Source: a virus (lineage: Duplodnaviria > Heunggongvirae > Uroviricota > Caudoviricetes). Taken from it: a stretch of 5,037 nt of DNA. The position numbers and the translations under genes were made by a program. Where the stretch lies: the IMG/VR virus record IMGVR_UViG_2667527898_000023, one strand, 5' to 3'. The notes under the pieces were generated by a model. The model did no database searches, was not told the DNA's origin, and was given only the letters and a program-made list of their open reading frames with translations. Shown piece by piece: positions 1 to 5,037 of this stretch (its first letter is position 1; each line of letters opens with the position of its first letter).

Positions 1-62
1 GGGTGCGTTGAGGATGCCTGACACATCAGAGGTGGCGAGGGATTTCTCCCCCGCCTGGTCTC

Positions 63-218
63 TTACTCCTCAGGTTCGTAAGCTGTGAAGACAGCGACCT
101 CCGTCTGGCCGGTTCGGATTCGTACCTCGCAGAGGTCTTTCCTCGTTACCAGTGCCGTCACTATGACGGTTAAACAGATGACGATCAGGGCGATTAACAT
201 CGCCTTTTGCTGCTTCAT
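63..218 (-). CDS. hok: Hok/Gef-family small membrane toxin (51 aa)
   Basis: Translation MKQQKAMLIALIVICLTVIVTALVTRKDLCEVRIRTGQTEVAVFTAYEPEE has the Hok/Gef signature (hydrophobic helix, LTRK.LCE motif, TGQTEVAVF); from memory it is near-identical to E. coli HokD/RelF. ATG at 216-218 (reverse strand). Confidence 0.8.
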   Translation of the reverse strand: MKQQKAMLIALIVICLTVIVTALVTRKDLCEVRIRTGQTEVAVFTAYEPEE

Positions 219-275
219 AGCCTGCTTCTCCTTGCCTTTCGGCACGTAAGAGGCTAACCTACATGTGTTCAGCAT
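63..275 (-). CDS. mok: Mok-like in-frame upstream extension of hok (70 aa reading frame)
   Basis: ORF begins MLNTCR...KEKQAM and continues in frame into Hok; this matches my recollection of chromosomal Mok proteins (MLNTCR... start, Hok fully contained). Function is translational coupling, not an independent protein. Confidence 0.5.
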   Translation of the reverse strand: MLNTCRLASYVPKGKEKQAMKQQKAMLIALIVICLTVIVTALVTRKDLCEVRIRTGQTEVAVFTAYEPEE

Positions 276-455
276 GGATTGAGCCTCAGATTAATGTTAA
301 GCGTCTTGCAGGACGCGTAATGTTAACTGGGGCTTTTCTCTATCTGCCTTTTGGTGTTCATGCCTGAGGCAGATAGCCTCAAGCACCCGCAGCAATTCTA
401 CTTAACTCACGTCACCTCGCCAATATGAAATCAATCAGAAAGGTGATCCATAAAA
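219..455 (-). promoter_or_regulatory. hok mRNA 5' leader region; candidate site of antisense Sok-like RNA on + strand
   Basis: 237-bp non-coding stretch upstream of hok on the coding strand, with a hairpin GCGTC-TTGCAG-GACGC (301-316) flanked by direct TAATGTTAA repeats, and a 9-bp inverted repeat CTATCTGCC/GGCAGATAG (348-376). A weak + strand promoter-like pair TTGCCT(232-237)-17-TAACCT(255-260) could drive an antisense RNA. Structure seen; function inferred from hok/sok paradigm. Confidence 0.3.
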
Positions 456-1142
456 TCACTCCTTCTCTTCTTTTCCGTAGTGGAGTTGGCCAATTTTGAT
501 AAGAGGGCGTCCCTGAGATTTGCGGTGTAGATTGGTATCGCGCAGAGAATACACACAGCCACAATATTCCTGCTGATAGAATTTTTCGCGCTTGCTGATT
601 TCAATCATACGGGACGAGCCGCCCTGCTTGCGCCAGTTATAATCCCAGTATACCATACCCGGATAATGCGCAACAGCTCGCCGCCCACACTCGTTAACCT
701 GCTGCATATTTTTCCAGCGCGAAATGCCCAGTGAACTGCTGATCACACTGAAACCATTTTCAGCAGCGTACAACGCTGTCCGCTCAAAACGCATGTCAAA
801 ACACATGGTACAACGGATCCCCCTCTCAGGCTCCCATTCCATTCCTTTGGCACGTTCAAACCAGTTGTCGGTGTCGTAATCAGCATCGATAAACGGCACG
901 CCGTGTTGTTCAGCAAAGCGAATATTTTCATCCTTACGAATTAAATACTCTTTCTGAGGATGAATGTTCGGGTTGTAGAAAAAGATGGTGTAGTCGATTC
1001 CCGAGGCCTGAAGCGCCTCCATCACTTCACCGGAACATGGAGCACAGCAAGAGTGCAGTAGTAGTTTGTTTGCCCCGTTTGGGAGCTCCAATTTAGGCCG
1101 TTTGAAATCAGCAATAGTCATAAATATTTTTATTGGGGTCAT
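456..1142 (-). CDS. DUF208/QueH-like protein (putative epoxyqueuosine reductase-family Fe-S enzyme), 228 aa
   Basis: Translation contains [14 protein letters not shown] near the N-terminus plus later cysteine pairs ([18 protein letters not shown]), matching my recollection of the QueH (DUF208) cysteine signature. No Shine-Dalgarno before ATG 1142 or the alternative ATG 1121, so the start is uncertain. Confidence 0.55.
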
Positions 1143-1295
1143 GAAAATAGCACAGAGTGTAGCATCAGAGCAGGGCTATCGGGAATATATGTCTAAATCT
1201 GGTAATATCTGGTTTTGACGCAAAGCGGACAACCACGCTGGCTCTACCCTGCGCCATGAAAATGTCAATTCACATCTGAACTAATGCTCTTTAAT

Positions 1296-1721
1296 CTAGT
1301 AACGTCTAAAATACCTAACATTTCCTTGATAAAATGCCAGTACACTCTGCATAGCTTCGCTCTTCCGGCACTCGCGACAGATTATATTCAGACGCCTGTC
1401 GTAGCGGCGTATTTCGCCGTCTGGTAACGACCAGATAAGGTCCGGATCAACCACTGCAGGTTTCTTCACCTTTGCCCTTGAGAGTTTTTTGCGGGCATTT
1501 TGCCAGTCCTTACGCGCCTGTTCAGACGGGAATAATCCGCAGCCGGAGTTGTATACATCGCCACTGGCTACCAGTTCTCTGGCAAGAACGCTCATCAGAT
1601 ATCTTGTTGCCCCAGTTTTAGCTTCCAGTTGTCGTAACGTCTCGCGCCCACTCTGGCGTACGAGTTCAACAACCTGCCCTTTAATTTTTTCCCGCTCTTC
1701 TTGTGTAAAAACTTTTGCCAC
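1296..1721 (-). CDS. Hypothetical prophage protein, possible N-terminal helix-turn-helix (141 aa)
   Basis: ORF with GTG start at 1719-1721 preceded by strong SD (caGGAGGgcttGTG on the reverse strand). Segment GRETLRQLEAKTGATRYLMSVLAREL looks HTH-like. Family not recognised. Confidence 0.5.
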   Translation of the reverse strand: MAKVFTQEEREKIKGQVVELVRQSGRETLRQLEAKTGATRYLMSVLARELVASGDVYNSGCGLFPSEQARKDWQNARKKLSRAKVKKPAVVDPDLIWSLPDGEIRRYDRRLNIICRECRKSEAMQSVLAFYQGNVRYFRRY

Positions 1722-1761
1722 AAGCCCTCCTGAAAATTACCTCATGACCAGAAATTAACAC

Positions 1762-2844
1762 TTACCCCCTGAAGCCCGGCGGAATTTCGTTATCCGGTTC
1801 AGAAATATGATTCACACAACGCTGGTTGTTCGTGCCGCTTACCGGGAGCAACCAGGGGTTCTCAAAATTCCGGTCCGGTCCAAAAAACGTCGTCGCTCGC
1901 TGAACAAATTCCGTTCCCGTTTTCCCGGTAGCCGCCAAGTATCTTGCGTAACGCCTCACGCCATCCAGCATGGCTTCTGGTGGCACCCCCTCGCGTAATC
2001 TGGCCTTCCAGGCACTGAAAGCGGATTTCTTCGGGTTTGCTCCGGCACGCAACGGGTACTCCCGCCAGACCTGTTCGAACACATCCGGATAATCCACTCG
2101 TCCCACAGACTGCCCGGTGTTTTCCGGGACTACCCGATCGGCTTCCCGCTGAATGGCGGAATCGGCTTCGGGCTGCTGCAGTTGGTGTGATTGCTCCGGC
2201 CTTGCGGTCATCACCTGCTGCACAGCGCCCGAATCGGCTTTCAGCGCATACGCTGAATCGGCTTCCGGTGTCGTGCCTGCTGGCTGACCAAGATTGACGG
2301 TCTGAACATCCCCTGCCTGGTTCGTGGCGTTTTTTACGCCATGGACCATAGTGTTTTGATCTTCTTGATCTGTATCTTTATCTGTATCTTTATCTGTATC
2401 TTTATCTGTCGTGACTCGTCGTGACATGTGCGTGACATTTCGTGACGCGCCGTGACAATCGCCATTTTGTTCCCGCTTTCTTTCCCTCTCTCGCTGCGCC
2501 CTCTTGCGCTCTGCAGGAGATTTTGCGGTTTGCGAAATATTGCCGTTGTCCTCTTTAAGCACCTGGCGTTTTTCCCATCCAGTGATTAAATCACCATCAA
2601 GTACCCGCCCCTGCATCGTCTGCAAAATTGAATCAATTACCTCTTCTGTCACGTCGAGCGCACTTGCCAAATCTTCTGTCGTGACATCAATGTGACCTCG
2701 CGTGACATTTCGTGACGCGCTCACCAGGAGGTGGATATACACTGCCATCACTGTTGCAATTGGCTGCCCTGACACTCTGGCAATTGTTCGCCACTTAGGG
2801 TCATTTGGCATGTCATGCCATAATCTGAGCCAGGCGTTAGCCAT
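1762..2844 (-). CDS. Phage replication initiation protein, YdaU/DUF1376-like, with repeat-rich central linker (360 aa)
   Basis: N-terminus MANAWLRLWHDMPNDPKWRTIARVSGQPIATVMAVYIHLL resembles the DUF1376 N-domain; C-terminus has FEQVWREYPLRAGANPKKSAFSAWKARL...FFGPDRNFENPW, a W/K-rich motif typical of phage replication-organiser proteins. Position (third gene after cro-like and YdaT-like) matches the Rac ydaS-ydaT-ydaU order. Start chosen at ATG 2842-2844 with SD GAGGTGA 2 nt upstream; an in-frame GTG at 2848-2850 is the ORF-track start. Confidence 0.65.
   Translation of the reverse strand: MANAWLRLWHDMPNDPKWRTIARVSGQPIATVMAVYIHLLVSASRNVTRGHIDVTTEDLASALDVTEEVIDSILQTMQGRVLDGDLITGWEKRQVLKEDNGNISQTAKSPAERKRAQRERERKREQNGDCHGASRNVTHMSRRVTTDKDTDKDTDKDTDQEDQNTMVHGVKNATNQAGDVQTVNLGQPAGTTPEADSAYALKADSGAVQQVMTARPEQSHQLQQPEADSAIQREADRVVPENTGQSVGRVDYPDVFEQVWREYPLRAGANPKKSAFSAWKARLREGVPPEAMLDGVRRYARYLAATGKTGTEFVQRATTFFGPDRNFENPWLLPVSGTNNQRCVNHISEPDNEIPPGFRG
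2137..2265. repeat. Four dispersed copies of ATCGGCTT(C/T) at 24/72/24-bp spacing
   Basis: Copies start at 2137, 2161, 2233 and 2257 on the + strand. On the coding strand they give protein repeats (PEADSA..KADSG..PEADSA..READR) in the initiator linker. Confidence 0.8.
2369..2409. repeat. Tandem 12-bp repeat TCTGTATCTTTA x3 plus partial copy (AT-rich)
   Basis: Perfect copies at 2369-2380, 2381-2392, 2393-2404, partial 2405-2409; encodes DKDT repeats on the reverse strand. Two GATC sites (2358-2361, 2367-2370) lie immediately upstream. Confidence 0.9.
2410..2456. repeat. Iteron-like array A: five direct CGTGAC hexamers phased about 10 bp apart
   Basis: CGTGAC at 2410, 2420, 2431, 2441, 2451 (spacings 10, 11, 10, 10 bp, about one helical turn). 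Directly abuts the AT-rich tandem repeat. Confidence 0.85.
2675..2720. repeat. Iteron-like array B: CGTGAC/TGTGAC hexamers at about 10-bp phasing; includes 21-bp perfect copy of array A
   Basis: Hexamers at 2680, 2691 (TGTGAC), 2701, 2711; 2700-2720 is identical to 2430-2450 (GCGTGACATTTCGTGACGCGC), and TCTGTCGTGAC recurs at 2405-2415 and 2675-2685, both exactly 270 bp apart. An inverted GTCACG copy sits at 2648-2653. Confidence 0.85.
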
Positions 2845-2914
2845 ACTCACCTCTTCTGATACCGAATCTTTTACTCACGAGTTGCCGGAAGCGATTCGAT
2901 ATGGCTATTATCAC

Positions 2915-3340
2915 TCAATGCACTGCCACAGCATTTCCTGCCGGGCCACCACGGTTCATCTGATTGAAACCGGCGATTGCCACTGCGACAAAATCATCAG
3001 CGTCTCTCACCAGTCGCTCCCGCGTCTCCACTAGTTCCCGAAAATAGGCTGAGCTATGACTGCGCATTCGGGCCACCAGCAGAGGTGGCATTGCTTTTTC
3101 GATAGCTGGTAACAACGCCTGAATTTTTTCAACTGCATCAGGGGTGTCTTTCTCTATCCAGCGGAAAATTTTCTGGGTATTGCGAGCCAGGGCTTCCGGA
3201 TGGCTGTCGTCGTACAGTTCAGGAAACGTCATACCCAACTCAAAATAAGCCTGGGTTATTCCAGCTGCCGGAACTTTTTCGCCATCAGGACGCGCCCAGG
3301 CATTCATCGCCATGCGGATGTGTTCATGCTTGATTTTCAT
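2915..3340 (-). CDS. YdaT-like protein (CII-like candidate of Rac-type prophages), 141 aa
   Basis: Starts MKIKHEH, which I recall as the YdaT N-terminus; second gene of the cro-side operon. ATG 3338-3340 has a G-rich SD (AAGGGGGG) upstream and overlaps the end of the cro-like gene by 17 nt. The ORF-track start at 3412 lies inside the cro-like gene and is less likely. Confidence 0.55.
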   Translation of the reverse strand: MKIKHEHIRMAMNAWARPDGEKVPAAGITQAYFELGMTFPELYDDSHPEALARNTQKIFRWIEKDTPDAVEKIQALLPAIEKAMPPLLVARMRSHSSAYFRELVETRERLVRDADDFVAVAIAGFNQMNRGGPAGNAVAVH

Positions 3341-3566
3341 GAATCCCCCCTTGGTTAGAAGGCGGATTATGATCAGAACCGGGAATGACAACCGTCGGTA
3401 TGTGTAACTCATATTTGAGCGCCCCGGCAGTGACTGCCTGAATTAGCAACGCCCATTTCCACGGAACCTCTTCCCCCCACATGCTGACTGTGGTTTTTGA
3501 CGTTCCTAGAGCTGCGGCTGTTTTAACAACTCCGCCAAAATAGCCTAATACTTCTGATTTTTTCAT
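3324..3566 (-). CDS. Cro-like / YdaS-like small HTH regulator (80 aa)
   Basis: First gene of the leftward operon, divergent from the CI-like repressor; contains HTH-like VVKTAAALGTSKTTVSMW. Start at ATG 3564-3566 with SD GGAG 6 nt upstream; the longer ORF-track start (3614) lacks an SD. Confidence 0.65.
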   Translation of the reverse strand: MKKSEVLGYFGGVVKTAAALGTSKTTVSMWGEEVPWKWALLIQAVTAGALKYELHIPTVVIPGSDHNPPSNQGGIHENQA

Positions 3567-3657
3567 GAGTCGCTCCATAAAACTGAACGCCAAAAGTTTA
3601 ATAATCAAAACCAAAGAAAGTCAAGAAACAAAACCATCTGTGTTTTAAAATCAAAAC
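3567..3657. promoter_or_regulatory. Divergent switch region (PR-like and PRM-like promoters, repeated candidate operator motifs)
   Basis: 91-bp AT-rich intergenic region between divergent cro-like and cI-like genes. Three direct CAAAAC(C/A) motifs at 3606, 3629, 3652 (23-bp spacing). Reverse-strand promoter TTGACT (3623..3618) -18- TAAACT (3599..3594). Forward-strand -10-like TAAAAT (3646-3651) placed so transcription would start at or near the cI ATG. Confidence 0.5.
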
Positions 3658-4296
3658 ATGAGCAAGCAAACAATATCTGAACGCATAACCCAACGTATGC
3701 ATGCGCTAAACCTGAAAGGCAAAGACCTTGTCAATGCCACTGGCGCATCAAAAGGCTCCGTAAGTCAATGGATGAACGGTGGAGGAGCGCCGTCCTCGCG
3801 TTACATAAGTTCACTGGCAAAAATATTGAAAGTAAACGAAAATTGGCTTCTTAATGGAGGAGAGTTAAATACAGGTGATTCGCTTGATCTATCTTTACCG
3901 CCGATAAAAACGGTTCCGCTACTATCACTTCAGCAGGCAGCAAGCTGGAGTGATTATATGAAAAATTCCTCAATAACCTCTTGTGTGCAGCTTGTCGGAG
4001 AAATCCCGGCCAATACCTTTGCAGTTGTTCTAGAGAGTGACAGTATGTCAACATCTGGTGGGGGAGTTTCCATCCCAAATGGTTCAACAGTTTTTGTTGA
4101 TCCCGATCGAACCGTACAACCAGGAAATATTGTCCTTGCCTTACCCAAAGGGACCACAACACCTGTCATTCGTAAACTGGAGATAGAAGGGCCGGATATT
4201 CTTTTAGTCCCCACGAATCCTCGCTACCCTTCAATTATGCTGGATGATCTATCTTGCATATTGGGCGTATGCTTTAAAATTCAACAAGATATTTAA
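3658..4296 (+). CDS. CI-like phage repressor: N-terminal HTH (XRE-like) plus C-terminal S24 (LexA-like) peptidase domain, 212 aa
   Basis: N-terminal HTH-like region (GKDLVNATGASKGSVSQWMNG); C-terminal domain has the Ser/Lys dyad context ESDSM (Ser129) and VIRKL (Lys173), 44 residues apart, as in LexA and lambda CI. Divergent from the cro-like gene. No SD before the ATG. Confidence 0.85.
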   Translation: MSKQTISERITQRMHALNLKGKDLVNATGASKGSVSQWMNGGGAPSSRYISSLAKILKVNENWLLNGGELNTGDSLDLSLPPIKTVPLLSLQQAASWSDYMKNSSITSCVQLVGEIPANTFAVVLESDSMSTSGGGVSIPNGSTVFVDPDRTVQPGNIVLALPKGTTTPVIRKLEIEGPDILLVPTNPRYPSIMLDDLSCILGVCFKIQQDI

Positions 4297-4324
4297 CCGA
4301 CCTCATCTATTTGATTAACTGTAT

Positions 4325-4341
4325 GCCATCGTGGTGATGGC
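4325..4341 (+). terminator. Hairpin downstream of cI-like gene (possible weak terminator)
   Basis: Perfect 6-bp stem GCCATC/GATGGC with 5-nt loop GTGGT, 29 bp after the cI stop; no U-tract follows directly, so terminator function is doubtful. Confidence 0.2.
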
Positions 4342-4380
4342 TTAACAGCTGCCTGCTTAAAATGTTTTGATAAAAAAACA

Positions 4381-4409
4381 TTGACCTGAAAAGTTCATTT
4401 TTCTAAACT
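4381..4409 (+). promoter_or_regulatory. Candidate sigma70 promoter for downstream small genes
   Basis: TTGACC (4381-4386), 17-bp spacer, TAAACT (4404-4409), preceded by an A-rich tract. It lies about 180 bp upstream of the next start codon. Confidence 0.3.
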
Positions 4410-4588
4410 TCATTCATTCCCTCTCCCCACCCCACAGAATGCAGGGCAATACTTCGAGTTACCAGGCAGTGGTCAGGGGTTAAGTAGCCAGCCCGAGGCG
4501 TAAGAACATGACGGCAGGGTTCAACTTTAATAACTATGCAGCAGGTTTTTGTTCCGCTACCCCGGCGTTAAGGGGAAATGAGGTCAGC

Positions 4589-4744
4589 ATGGATACTATC
4601 GATCTTGGCAACAGCGAATCTCTGGTATGTGGCGTGTTCCCCAACCAGGACGGTACGTTCACCGCGATGACGTATACCAAAAGCAAAACGTTTAAAACCG
4701 AAAATGGTGCCCGTCGCTGGCTGGAAAGAAACTCAGGTGAGTGA
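4589..4744 (+). CDS. Small prophage protein (51 aa), YdaF/DUF1391-like by recollection
   Basis: ATG 4589 preceded by SD GAGG (5-nt spacing); product MDTIDLGNSESLVCGVFPNQDGTFTAMTYTKSKTFKTENGARRWLERNSGE. The longer ORF-track start at 4508 has no SD. I recall a similar small protein next to racR in the Rac prophage, but the name is uncertain. Confidence 0.5.
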   Translation: MDTIDLGNSESLVCGVFPNQDGTFTAMTYTKSKTFKTENGARRWLERNSGE

Positions 4745-4745
4745 T

Positions 4746-4820
4746 ATGGATTTTGACACAATCATGGAAAAGGCTTACGAAGAATACTTCGAAGGCCTTG
4801 CCGAAGGCGAAGAAGCTCAC
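4746..4820 (+). pseudogene. Small prophage gene disrupted by IS1 after codon 25
   Basis: ATG 4746 with SD AGGTGA upstream, 1 nt after the previous stop. Native reading MDFDTIMEKAYEEYFEGLAEGEEAH ends where the IS1 inverted repeat begins (4821); the ORF-track ORF 4704..4901 is a chimera reading into IS1. Confidence 0.5.
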
Positions 4821-5037
4821 GGTAATGACTCCAACTTATTGATAGTGTTTTATGTTCAGATAATGCCCGATGACTTTGTCATGCAGCTCCACCGATTTTG
4901 AGAACGACAGCGACTTCCGTCCCAGCCGTGCCAGGTGCTGCCTCAGATTCAGGTTATGCCGCTCAATTCGCTGCGTATATCGCTTGCTGATTACGTGCAG
5001 CTTTCCCTTCAGGCGGGATTCATACAGCGGCCAGCCA
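4821..5037 (-). mobile_element. IS1 insertion sequence, partial (right end with terminal inverted repeat); continues beyond window
   Basis: 4821-4843 GGTAATGACTCCAACTTATTGAT is the IS1 right inverted repeat; the reverse complement of 4821-5037 matches the 3' terminal about 217 bp of IS1 as I remember it. Confidence 0.93.
4836..5037 (-). CDS. insB: IS1 transposase InsB, C-terminal part (partial, 5' end outside window)
   Basis: Reverse-strand translation ends ...[53 protein letters not shown] with stop TAA at 4836-4838 inside the inverted repeat, as in IS1. Confidence 0.9.

Follow-up and report, generated by a model that had tools for sequence, protein, structure and literature searches.

Sequence evidence for a complete hok/mok/sok cassette of the hokD/hokW lineage in a Rac/Qin-like lambdoid prophage

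Our analysis of the window, by which we mean the whole 5,037-nucleotide stretch of viral DNA under study, indicates with little room for doubt that positions 1-423 on the minus strand carry a hok/mok/sok type I toxin-antitoxin cassette that is complete, belongs to the hokD/hokW lineage and lies in the nin-type region of a lambdoid prophage of the Rac/Qin-like kind. The cassette is real and complete, and judged by the elements that can be read in it, very probably functional. It is not novel, as the lineage has already been described and experimentally characterised, and while the identity of the cassette is secure, its biological role is uncertain. A sequence-only reading of the same DNA had drawn the locus at 63-455; the features it named do lie there, but the cassette runs from 423 down to 1, so that the 3' UTR at 1-62 had been left out, and with it the fbi element, the stem-loop at 34-55 and the segment whose pairing masks the mok start.

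Reading frames, promoters and terminators

The coding and promoter features of the cassette are as follows.

63-218, minus strand: hok open reading frame, 51 amino acids, with the Shine-Dalgarno (SD) sequence AAGGAGA at 233-227
63-275, minus strand: mok open reading frame, 70 codons (70 amino acids), beginning MLNTCR and in frame with hok
77-80, minus strand: UACG at Hok Tyr47, a sequence motif for TadA A-to-I editing (Tyr to Cys recoding)
395-423, minus strand: hok/mok mRNA promoter, with -35 TTGGCG (423-418), a 17-nt spacer, -10 TAGAAT (400-395) and +1 at about 388
232-260, plus strand: Sok promoter as read from the sequence, with -35 TTGCCT (232-237), a 17-nt spacer and -10 TAACCT (255-260)

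The encoded Hok is a small hydrophobic peptide of about 50 amino acids that belongs to the Hok/Gef family, being matched by Pfam HOK_GEF (PF01848) with an E value of 3e-23 and 81.6 bits against a cut-off of 22. It had been described as near-identical to HokD/RelF, and the resemblance turned out to be stronger than that: the hok coding DNA is the same as that of K-12 hokD (relF) at 156 of 156 nucleotides, and the protein is likewise identical. Editing of the hokD mRNA has been reported at a level of 6% (PMC12214031; bioRxiv 10.1101/2025.08.07.668861), and the corresponding motif is present at Tyr47. In the consensus structure the SD/AUG region of hok is base-paired to a 3' portion of its coding sequence.

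The in-frame Mok-like extension is intact, as had been proposed, and forms an overlapping upstream frame with a Shine-Dalgarno sequence of its own, GAGG, located 8 nt 5' of the mok AUG. The mok frame is in frame with hok in 933W, hokC, hokE and a Salmonella plasmid but out of frame in R1, hokB, pE92 and SL112. Because it varies in this way among members of the family, an in-frame mok is by itself no sign of integrity, nor can it serve as a criterion of membership.

Using a simple consensus scan of positions 1-520 we found the hok promoter as the sole consensus site, with 9 of 12 matches, and a TAnnAT -10 box stands at an equal distance from the mRNA start in all 11 of the hok loci compared. 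The Sok promoter has the same register as that of R1 (TTGCGC-17-TATCCT) and of eight other loci, and both promoters keep a conserved register across 10-11 loci. The scan flagged neither the Sok promoter nor any terminator, that of Sok included; the promoter was missed because its -10 box TAACCT matches at only 3 of 6 positions, and the terminator because its stem-loop exceeds the loop limits of the scan. Both were placed instead by comparison with R1, 933W and other loci, and by folding. The terminator AACCCGCTTCGGCGGGTTTT is found 3' of fbi in UPEC 26-1 and in K-12, and the intrinsic terminator of the hok mRNA lies just past window position 1. The hok promoter region (410-422) and the 3' UTR (29-40) are complementary over 8-9 bp, which was judged to be chance, as by our own estimate one or two such perfect 8-mers are expected in 470 nt.

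Switch folds of the hok mRNA and the Sok antisense RNA

The Rfam family RF01794 matches the window at 388..213 on the minus strand over the full length of the model, with 120.5 bits and an E value of 5e-28 against a gathering score of 59, which shows that the region is no chance pattern. The fact that the hit lies on the hok-sense strand, and that the model ends in the hok AUG, indicates that RF01794, which carries the name 'sok', in fact models the leader of the hok mRNA, Sok being its complement. A name of this kind for a model of the hok-mRNA strand could mislead the strand assignment made by automated pipelines. Two further Rfam hits, ceN48 (E 0.16) and ZEB2_AS1_2 (E 0.8), fell far under their gathering scores and were taken as chance. 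The elements of the mRNA, listed here from the whole transcript and then from its 5' to its 3' end, are named according to the definitions of tac, fbi, ucb and dcb in Le Rhun et al. 2022 (PMC9841398).

1-388, minus strand: full-length hok mRNA, 388 nt, from tac to fbi; the Rfam model also starts at 388
377-388, minus strand: tac (translational activator element), GGGUGCUUGAGG, at the mRNA 5' end
340-376, minus strand: 5' hairpin of the hok mRNA, with perfect 10-bp arms (367-376 and 340-349); a stem of the Rfam consensus
329-335, minus strand: ucb, or anti-SD, AAGCCCC, as defined in PMC9841398
250-287, minus strand: Sok target hairpin of the open mRNA form, in which the mok SD GAGG (287-284) is paired with dcb AGCCUC (255-250)
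34-55, minus strand: 3' UTR stem-loop GGCGGGGGAGAAAUCCCUCGCC, -18.8 kcal/mol, two pairs of which covary
14-26, minus strand: 3' UTR partner of the mok start region (263-275) in the full-length mRNA, forming an 11-bp helix in the MFE (duplex -14.1 kcal/mol)
1-13, minus strand: fbi (fold-back inhibitory element), CCUCAACGCACCC, which pairs with tac

By the same definitions the 3' UTR segment at 14-26 is not dcb, and GCCUCUUAC is not ucb.

Folding of the 388-nt mRNA gave an MFE of -160.4 kcal/mol (z = -8.6) in which the 5' and 3' ends are paired. MFE predictions, each made at the appropriate length, give the alternative folds by which the hok family is recognised. In the full-length form the mRNA is predicted to fold back through tac and fbi (12 bp with one bulged C, duplex -19.8 kcal/mol) and is closed by pairing of ucb with the mok SD region. 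At short nascent lengths tac instead pairs with 360-370 in a metastable hairpin of -19.6 kcal/mol, and in shorter forms, nascent and truncated, ucb pairs with tac (-10.7 kcal/mol), which together with the SD/dcb pairing makes up the open form. In a 3'-truncation series the MFE switched between the metastable and the tac/ucb form depending on the cut point. The open fold is also the one to which the full-length match of the Rfam covariance model corresponds. The Sok target hairpin was obtained from the MFE of mRNA 1-145 and of 100-141 (-13.4 kcal/mol) and is again part of the Rfam consensus structure; it has the mok AUG (275-273) in its stem and a 7-nt loop, CUGAACA, in which the predicted fold displays the YUNR (U-turn) motif CUGA. 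A YUNR motif in this loop is a feature of the hok/sok family known from the R1 literature. The inverted repeat that had been noticed at 348-376 is real and is the 5' hairpin of the hok mRNA, but the range given covers only the loop and one arm; across loci 3 of 7 pairs of this hairpin are changed on both sides. By analogy with R1 (PMC9841398), the stem-loop at 34-55 is likely to act as the 3' end protector of the processed mRNA.

In order to compare these pairings among loci, nine were folded separately: the window, 933W, SL112, pE92, the R1-type locus, the Salmonella, Klebsiella and Cronobacter plasmids, and hokB. For the 3' elements K-12 hokC and hokE were left out, as IS186 cuts their 3' UTRs, and hokA and hokD have no leader. 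The tac/fbi helix was found in all nine loci with differing sequences, and the helix between the mok start and the 3' UTR in eight (pE92 being the exception) with sequences that are quite different. In fbi the bulged base varies between C and U, and one pair covaries, being U-A in five loci and C-G in four. In the nine-sequence alignment 94.3% of cells are paired, compared to 39-49% when the partners are slid, and 30 cells are changed on both sides, compared to at most 9 in the slid controls, counts that overstate independence since the consensus structure was derived from the alignment in which they were made and the nine sequences are related. The proposal of a regulated, structured leader is thus well borne out: the conserved pairing elements that were to be looked for are present and covary across loci, and every regulatory element of the R1 hok mRNA could be located.

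On the opposite strand, the antisense RNA and the repeats associated with it take up the following positions.

267-342, plus strand: predicted Sok antisense RNA, about 71-76 nt, with a stem-loop at 281-335 between the 5' and 3' tails
292-300 and 318-326: direct repeats TAATGTTAA, flanking the hairpin at 301-316

The predicted Sok consists of a single-stranded 14-nt 5' tail, GUUCAGCAUGGAUU, a long stem-loop and then a U-rich tail, UUUUCUCU, and the candidate folds at -31.6 kcal/mol with a z of -5.2. A Sok-like antisense RNA had been thought plausible at about 260-340 on the plus strand, and the comparison with 933W lends this considerable weight, as the sokW annotated in that phage maps to about 268-338 (+) of the window and the region 225-345, which spans the Sok promoter and Sok, differs from sokW of 933W/Sp5 by 1 nt, located in the apical loop. 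Northern blots by Takada et al. 2021 (PMC8621323) revealed the sokW RNA, and the probes YO-592 and YO-597 of that study match the window exactly at 267-296 and 230-259. Mutation of the -10 box in the same work released toxicity, which was partly relieved by sokW in trans (PMC8621323). The mutagenic primer YO-421 (PMC8621323) shows that the box destroyed was TAACCTA, in other words the TAACCT at 255-260 and the A that follows it, and the Sok promoter of the window is the same in sequence as that of Sp5, in which the -10 mutation served to abolish antitoxin activity. The cassette is therefore predicted to encode in cis an antisense Sok with a promoter and a terminator hairpin of its own, complementary to the translation initiation region of mok.

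The hairpin at 301-316, GCGTCTTGCAGGACGC, is present as had been described and folds at -7.1 kcal/mol. The direct repeats on either side of it are present too, yet they are no independent feature, each of them being one arm of the Sok stem. The two copies of TAATGTTAA pair with each other at a one-base offset by A-U and two G.U pairs, and the hairpin stacks on top of this pairing to give one continuous stem-loop. The repeats and the hairpin are the arms and the apex of the Sok terminator stem-loop and of the complementary hairpin in the hok mRNA. When coordinates 281-337 were folded, the Sok-sense hairpin reached -29.6 kcal/mol and the hok-sense hairpin -19.1 kcal/mol; the latter is weaker because the G.U pairs become C.A mismatches.

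One could instead regard the hairpin and its 9-bp direct repeats as a small inserted element with a target-site duplication and no regulatory role, as the 16-nt apex is an insertion with respect to the Rfam consensus, hokC, hokB, hokE and R1, and the flanking repeats are perfect. We consider this very unlikely. The pairing between the repeats lengthens a stem that is found at this place in all hok loci, and forms with the hairpin the single stem-loop just described; the insertion has been kept in the hokD, hokW and pE92 lineages (88-100% overall identity) with variation in the loop only; and sokW, which carries it, works as an antitoxin (PMC8621323). The features at 292-326 are hence best read as part of Sok and its target.

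The steps of the mechanism that we propose follow those of plasmid R1 and of Sp5 hokW-sokW, and the sequence elements for each of them are present in the window. Transcription from a constitutive promoter (423-395) would yield the 388-nt mRNA, the 5' tac of which would be kept in the metastable hairpin during synthesis. In the finished mRNA tac would pair with fbi at the 3' end, ucb would mask the mok Shine-Dalgarno sequence and the mok start region would pair with the 3' UTR, a fold-back state that should permit neither translation nor binding of Sok. Slow 3' trimming would then remove fbi, upon which tac and ucb could pair and the mok SD would shift into the dcb hairpin with its U-turn loop. 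The processed mRNA would have one of two fates: it may be translated, with translation of mok driving that of hok to give the 51-amino-acid inner-membrane toxin, or it may be captured by the Sok of roughly 71-76 nt from the opposite strand (267-342), in which case the duplex would be destroyed. As Sok would be short-lived and the hok mRNA stable, the toxin would be released when Sok synthesis is lost.

Genomic setting and possible roles

The window corresponds to the early region of a Rac/Qin-like lambdoid E. coli prophage. Two of its genes are placed as follows.

3658-4296, plus strand: CI-like repressor with an S24 peptidase domain
456-1142, minus strand: QueH, the upstream neighbour of the hok cassette (Pfam 1.1e-65)

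The minus strand encodes Cro, a YdaT-like protein, a replisome organiser, DUF977 and QueH, after which comes the hok locus. Among complete genomes the closest ones align to window 1-4818 with identities of up to 98.7%, and UPEC 26-1 is 100% identical over window 1-460. The sequence-only reading was right that a QueH-like gene lies upstream and that relBE is not present beside this hok. It had also placed the cassette at the distal end of the early operon, which does not agree with the closest relatives, where a small ORF, DUF968, RusA and the Q antiterminator come after it. These downstream genes give the cassette a mid-operon position within the nin-type region of the rightward operon, between QueH and DUF968-RusA-Q, and it has its own promoter besides. 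Of 5426 complete E. coli genomes, 4728 contain a match to the 460-nt region, and in 3928 of the 5426 the match covers at least 80% of the 460-nt query, leader included. PGAP, the NCBI annotation pipeline, gives the gene the name hokD in E. coli genomes, and current annotation at such loci consists of the hok CDS alone, without mok and Sok.

As to the role of a hok/sok cassette in a prophage operon, experiments have already been done on the sister locus hokW-sokW. HokW is toxic and located in the inner membrane (Takada et al. 2021, PMC8621323). Upon RecA-dependent induction of Sp5, sokW is lost and HokW is produced; compared to the deletion mutant, cells with the locus begin to arrest growth about 40 minutes sooner, and the phage yield is about twofold higher with hokW-sokW (PMC8621323). 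By analogy with HokW, for which this has been shown, the prophage would most likely produce Hok when induced; the alternatives are post-segregational killing and phage exclusion. The intact chromosomal hokA, hokB and hokC have been reported not to give post-segregational killing (bioRxiv 10.1101/2025.08.07.668861), a result that makes the role of the present cassette uncertain, though not its identity.

Given that hokB is the only K-12 hok gene not regarded as inactivated (PMC12214031), the cassette might be intact in sequence and yet functionally silent, that is, transcribed but never producing toxin under natural conditions, as has been proposed for other chromosomal hok/sok loci. We think this unlikely, since all regulatory elements are present and match those of the tested hokW-sokW, the leader differences from 933W fall in loops or stay wobble-compatible, the locus with its leader has been kept in the 3928 genomes mentioned above, and the Sp5 copy does make toxin on induction and alters lysis timing and phage yield (PMC8621323). 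Another possibility is that the main role is abortive-infection defence against superinfecting lytic phages, where shut-off of host transcription would deplete Sok, rather than lysis or maintenance of the prophage itself. R1 hok/sok can exclude T4. The sequence itself does not separate defence from lysis or maintenance roles; however, hok loci are not enriched near defence systems (bioRxiv 10.1101/2025.08.07.668861), and the sole experimental data in the lineage are a positive effect on the resident phage's own release (PMC8621323), so that defence as the main role seems distinctly improbable. Production of Hok on induction is the consequence that we continue to favour.

How induction might be coupled to Hok in this arrangement can be addressed only tentatively. 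The hok gene is co-oriented with the rightward early operon and the Sok promoter is convergent to it, and a simple scan between the QueH stop (456) and the hok promoter found no terminator. The lack of such a terminator and the shared orientation mean that read-through across the cassette could occur on induction, which might add hok-sense RNA, occlude the Sok promoter and so wire Hok to induction as an aid to lysis timing. We regard this as a doubtful proposition; if true, it would provide one mechanism for RecA-dependent loss of Sok in the arrangement of the window. It cannot operate in Sp5, as the cassette there is elsewhere and faces its neighbour L0134, presumably a late gene, in convergent orientation.

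Comparison with known systems

The reference system, hok/sok (parB) of plasmid R1, has the same parts in the same order as the window, the same long-range pairings and the same promoter register. It differs in being located on a plasmid and not a prophage, in having mok out of frame with hok, in a Sok stem-loop that is about 16 nt shorter and in a Sok -10 box of TATCCT compared to TAACCT here. The Hok sequence has diverged from that of R1, to which HokW is 44% identical (PMC8621323). The K-12 locus hokC/mokC/sokC (gef) scores 118.3 bits with RF01794 and has an in-frame mok with the MLNTCR start, the same tac sequence as the window and an identical Sok 5' tail, GUUCAGCAU. The hokC locus lacks the apical hairpin, however, and its 3' UTR in K-12 is cut by IS186, which removes fbi.

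The hokW-mokW-sokW system of the Stx2 phages 933W and Sp5/VT2-Sakai is of the same lineage as the window cassette. The DNA of 933W is 96.1% identical over window 1-408, and mokW, hokW and sokW are all annotated in the matching block; the -35 region of the hok promoter lies outside it. Both systems share the in-frame mok (MLNTCR...), the tac and fbi sequences and the 16-nt apical hairpin. HokW and the Hok of the window are identical at 47 of 51 residues (92%), the four differences all being C-terminal (FTAYEPEE in the window, FVDYESEK in HokW). The position in the prophage differs as well, since the 933W cassette is near the right prophage end and adjoins attR, whereas that of the window lies between QueH and the nin/Q genes.

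With K-12 Qin hokD (relF) the window locus agrees downstream: the 3' UTR, fbi included, differs at 2 positions, and the K-12 gene is followed by the small ORF, DUF968 and Q antiterminator that are also found in the relatives of the window. Upstream, K-12 hokD matches window 1-232 only, its homology starting about 14 nt 5' of the hok AUG, directly after relE. In the place of the leader K-12 has relBE, and tac, ucb, the mok start, and Sok with its promoter are missing; an Rfam search of K-12 hokD accordingly found no leader. Our locus is not of the K-12-type hokD class: its gene is an orthologue of hokD, but in architecture it follows hokW, or the presumed ancestor, and the window represents the unrearranged form. 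These observations agree with the report that K-12 hokD lost canonical toxin-antitoxin components by rearrangement (PMC12214031). The window holds the full-length form of the cassette that is left in K-12 as leaderless hokD alone, and this form confirms what is generally accepted, namely that a rearrangement disabled hokD in K-12.

Strand of the antitoxin match and the Sok apex

Our Rfam search placed the family RF01794, which is named 'sok antitoxin', at window 213-388 on the (-) strand, that is, on the strand that is sense to the hok mRNA. The final positions of the RF01794 model are the hok AUG. As the model is built on the hok-mRNA sense and ends in the hok start codon, its match points to the leader of hok, with Sok encoded on the other strand. 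Pipelines that annotate automatically from RF01794 would assign the wrong strand.

The 16-nt apical hairpin of the Sok stem-loop (window 301-316) was found specifically in the hokD/hokW/pE92 lineage (compared loci L001, which is phage 933W, L009 and L013). Its sole variation was seen in the loop, where window position 310 is A in the window and C in 933W. Phage 933W also carries an sRNA-Xcc1 match (L001 447-535; 69.1 bits, which passes the Rfam gathering score), which lies about 2.4 kb upstream of hokW and has no relation to the hok/mok/sok finding.

Neighbouring gene and the end of the window

456-1142 (-), prophage-borne QueH homologue (epoxyqueuosine reductase; Pfam 1.1e-65)
about 4819-5037, IS1 end, with the transposase C-terminus on (-) (Pfam DDE_Tnp_IS1, 1.2e-34)

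The QueH gene is immediately upstream of hok in the window, and no terminator was detected in the interval between QueH and the hok promoter. The same adjacency of QueH and hokD is present in UPEC 26-1, ST95-32 and further strains. At the other end, the homology of close relatives to the window stops at 4818-4820, and IS1 breaks the leftward ydfA-ydfB-ydfC-dicB-type region right after the DUF1391 gene (4508-4744).

Repeats in the replisome-organiser gene

2363-2457 and 2647-2717, repeat region containing a 12-nt tandem array of TCTTTATCTGTA (3.9 copies)

The array encodes the DKDT repeats of the replisome-organiser protein and is adjoined by CGTGACR motifs, of which 8 were observed vs 1.0 expected by chance, with half of them (4/8) phased at 10-11 nt. 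These repeats are probably origin iterons inside an O-like gene.

Hok editing motif and mok frame

77-80 (-), UACG, TadA A-to-I editing motif at Hok Tyr47

A-to-I editing at this UACG would recode Tyr47 to Cys; in K-12 hokD mRNA, 6% editing has been reported (PMC12214031).

The frame of mok relative to hok varies among the window (63-275, (-)) and the compared hok loci L001, L004-L006 and L008-L013. The two genes share a frame in the window, 933W, hokC, hokE and one Salmonella plasmid; they are in different frames in plasmid R1, hokB, pE92 and SL112. This variation fits the idea that mok translation, and not the Mok peptide, is what counts.
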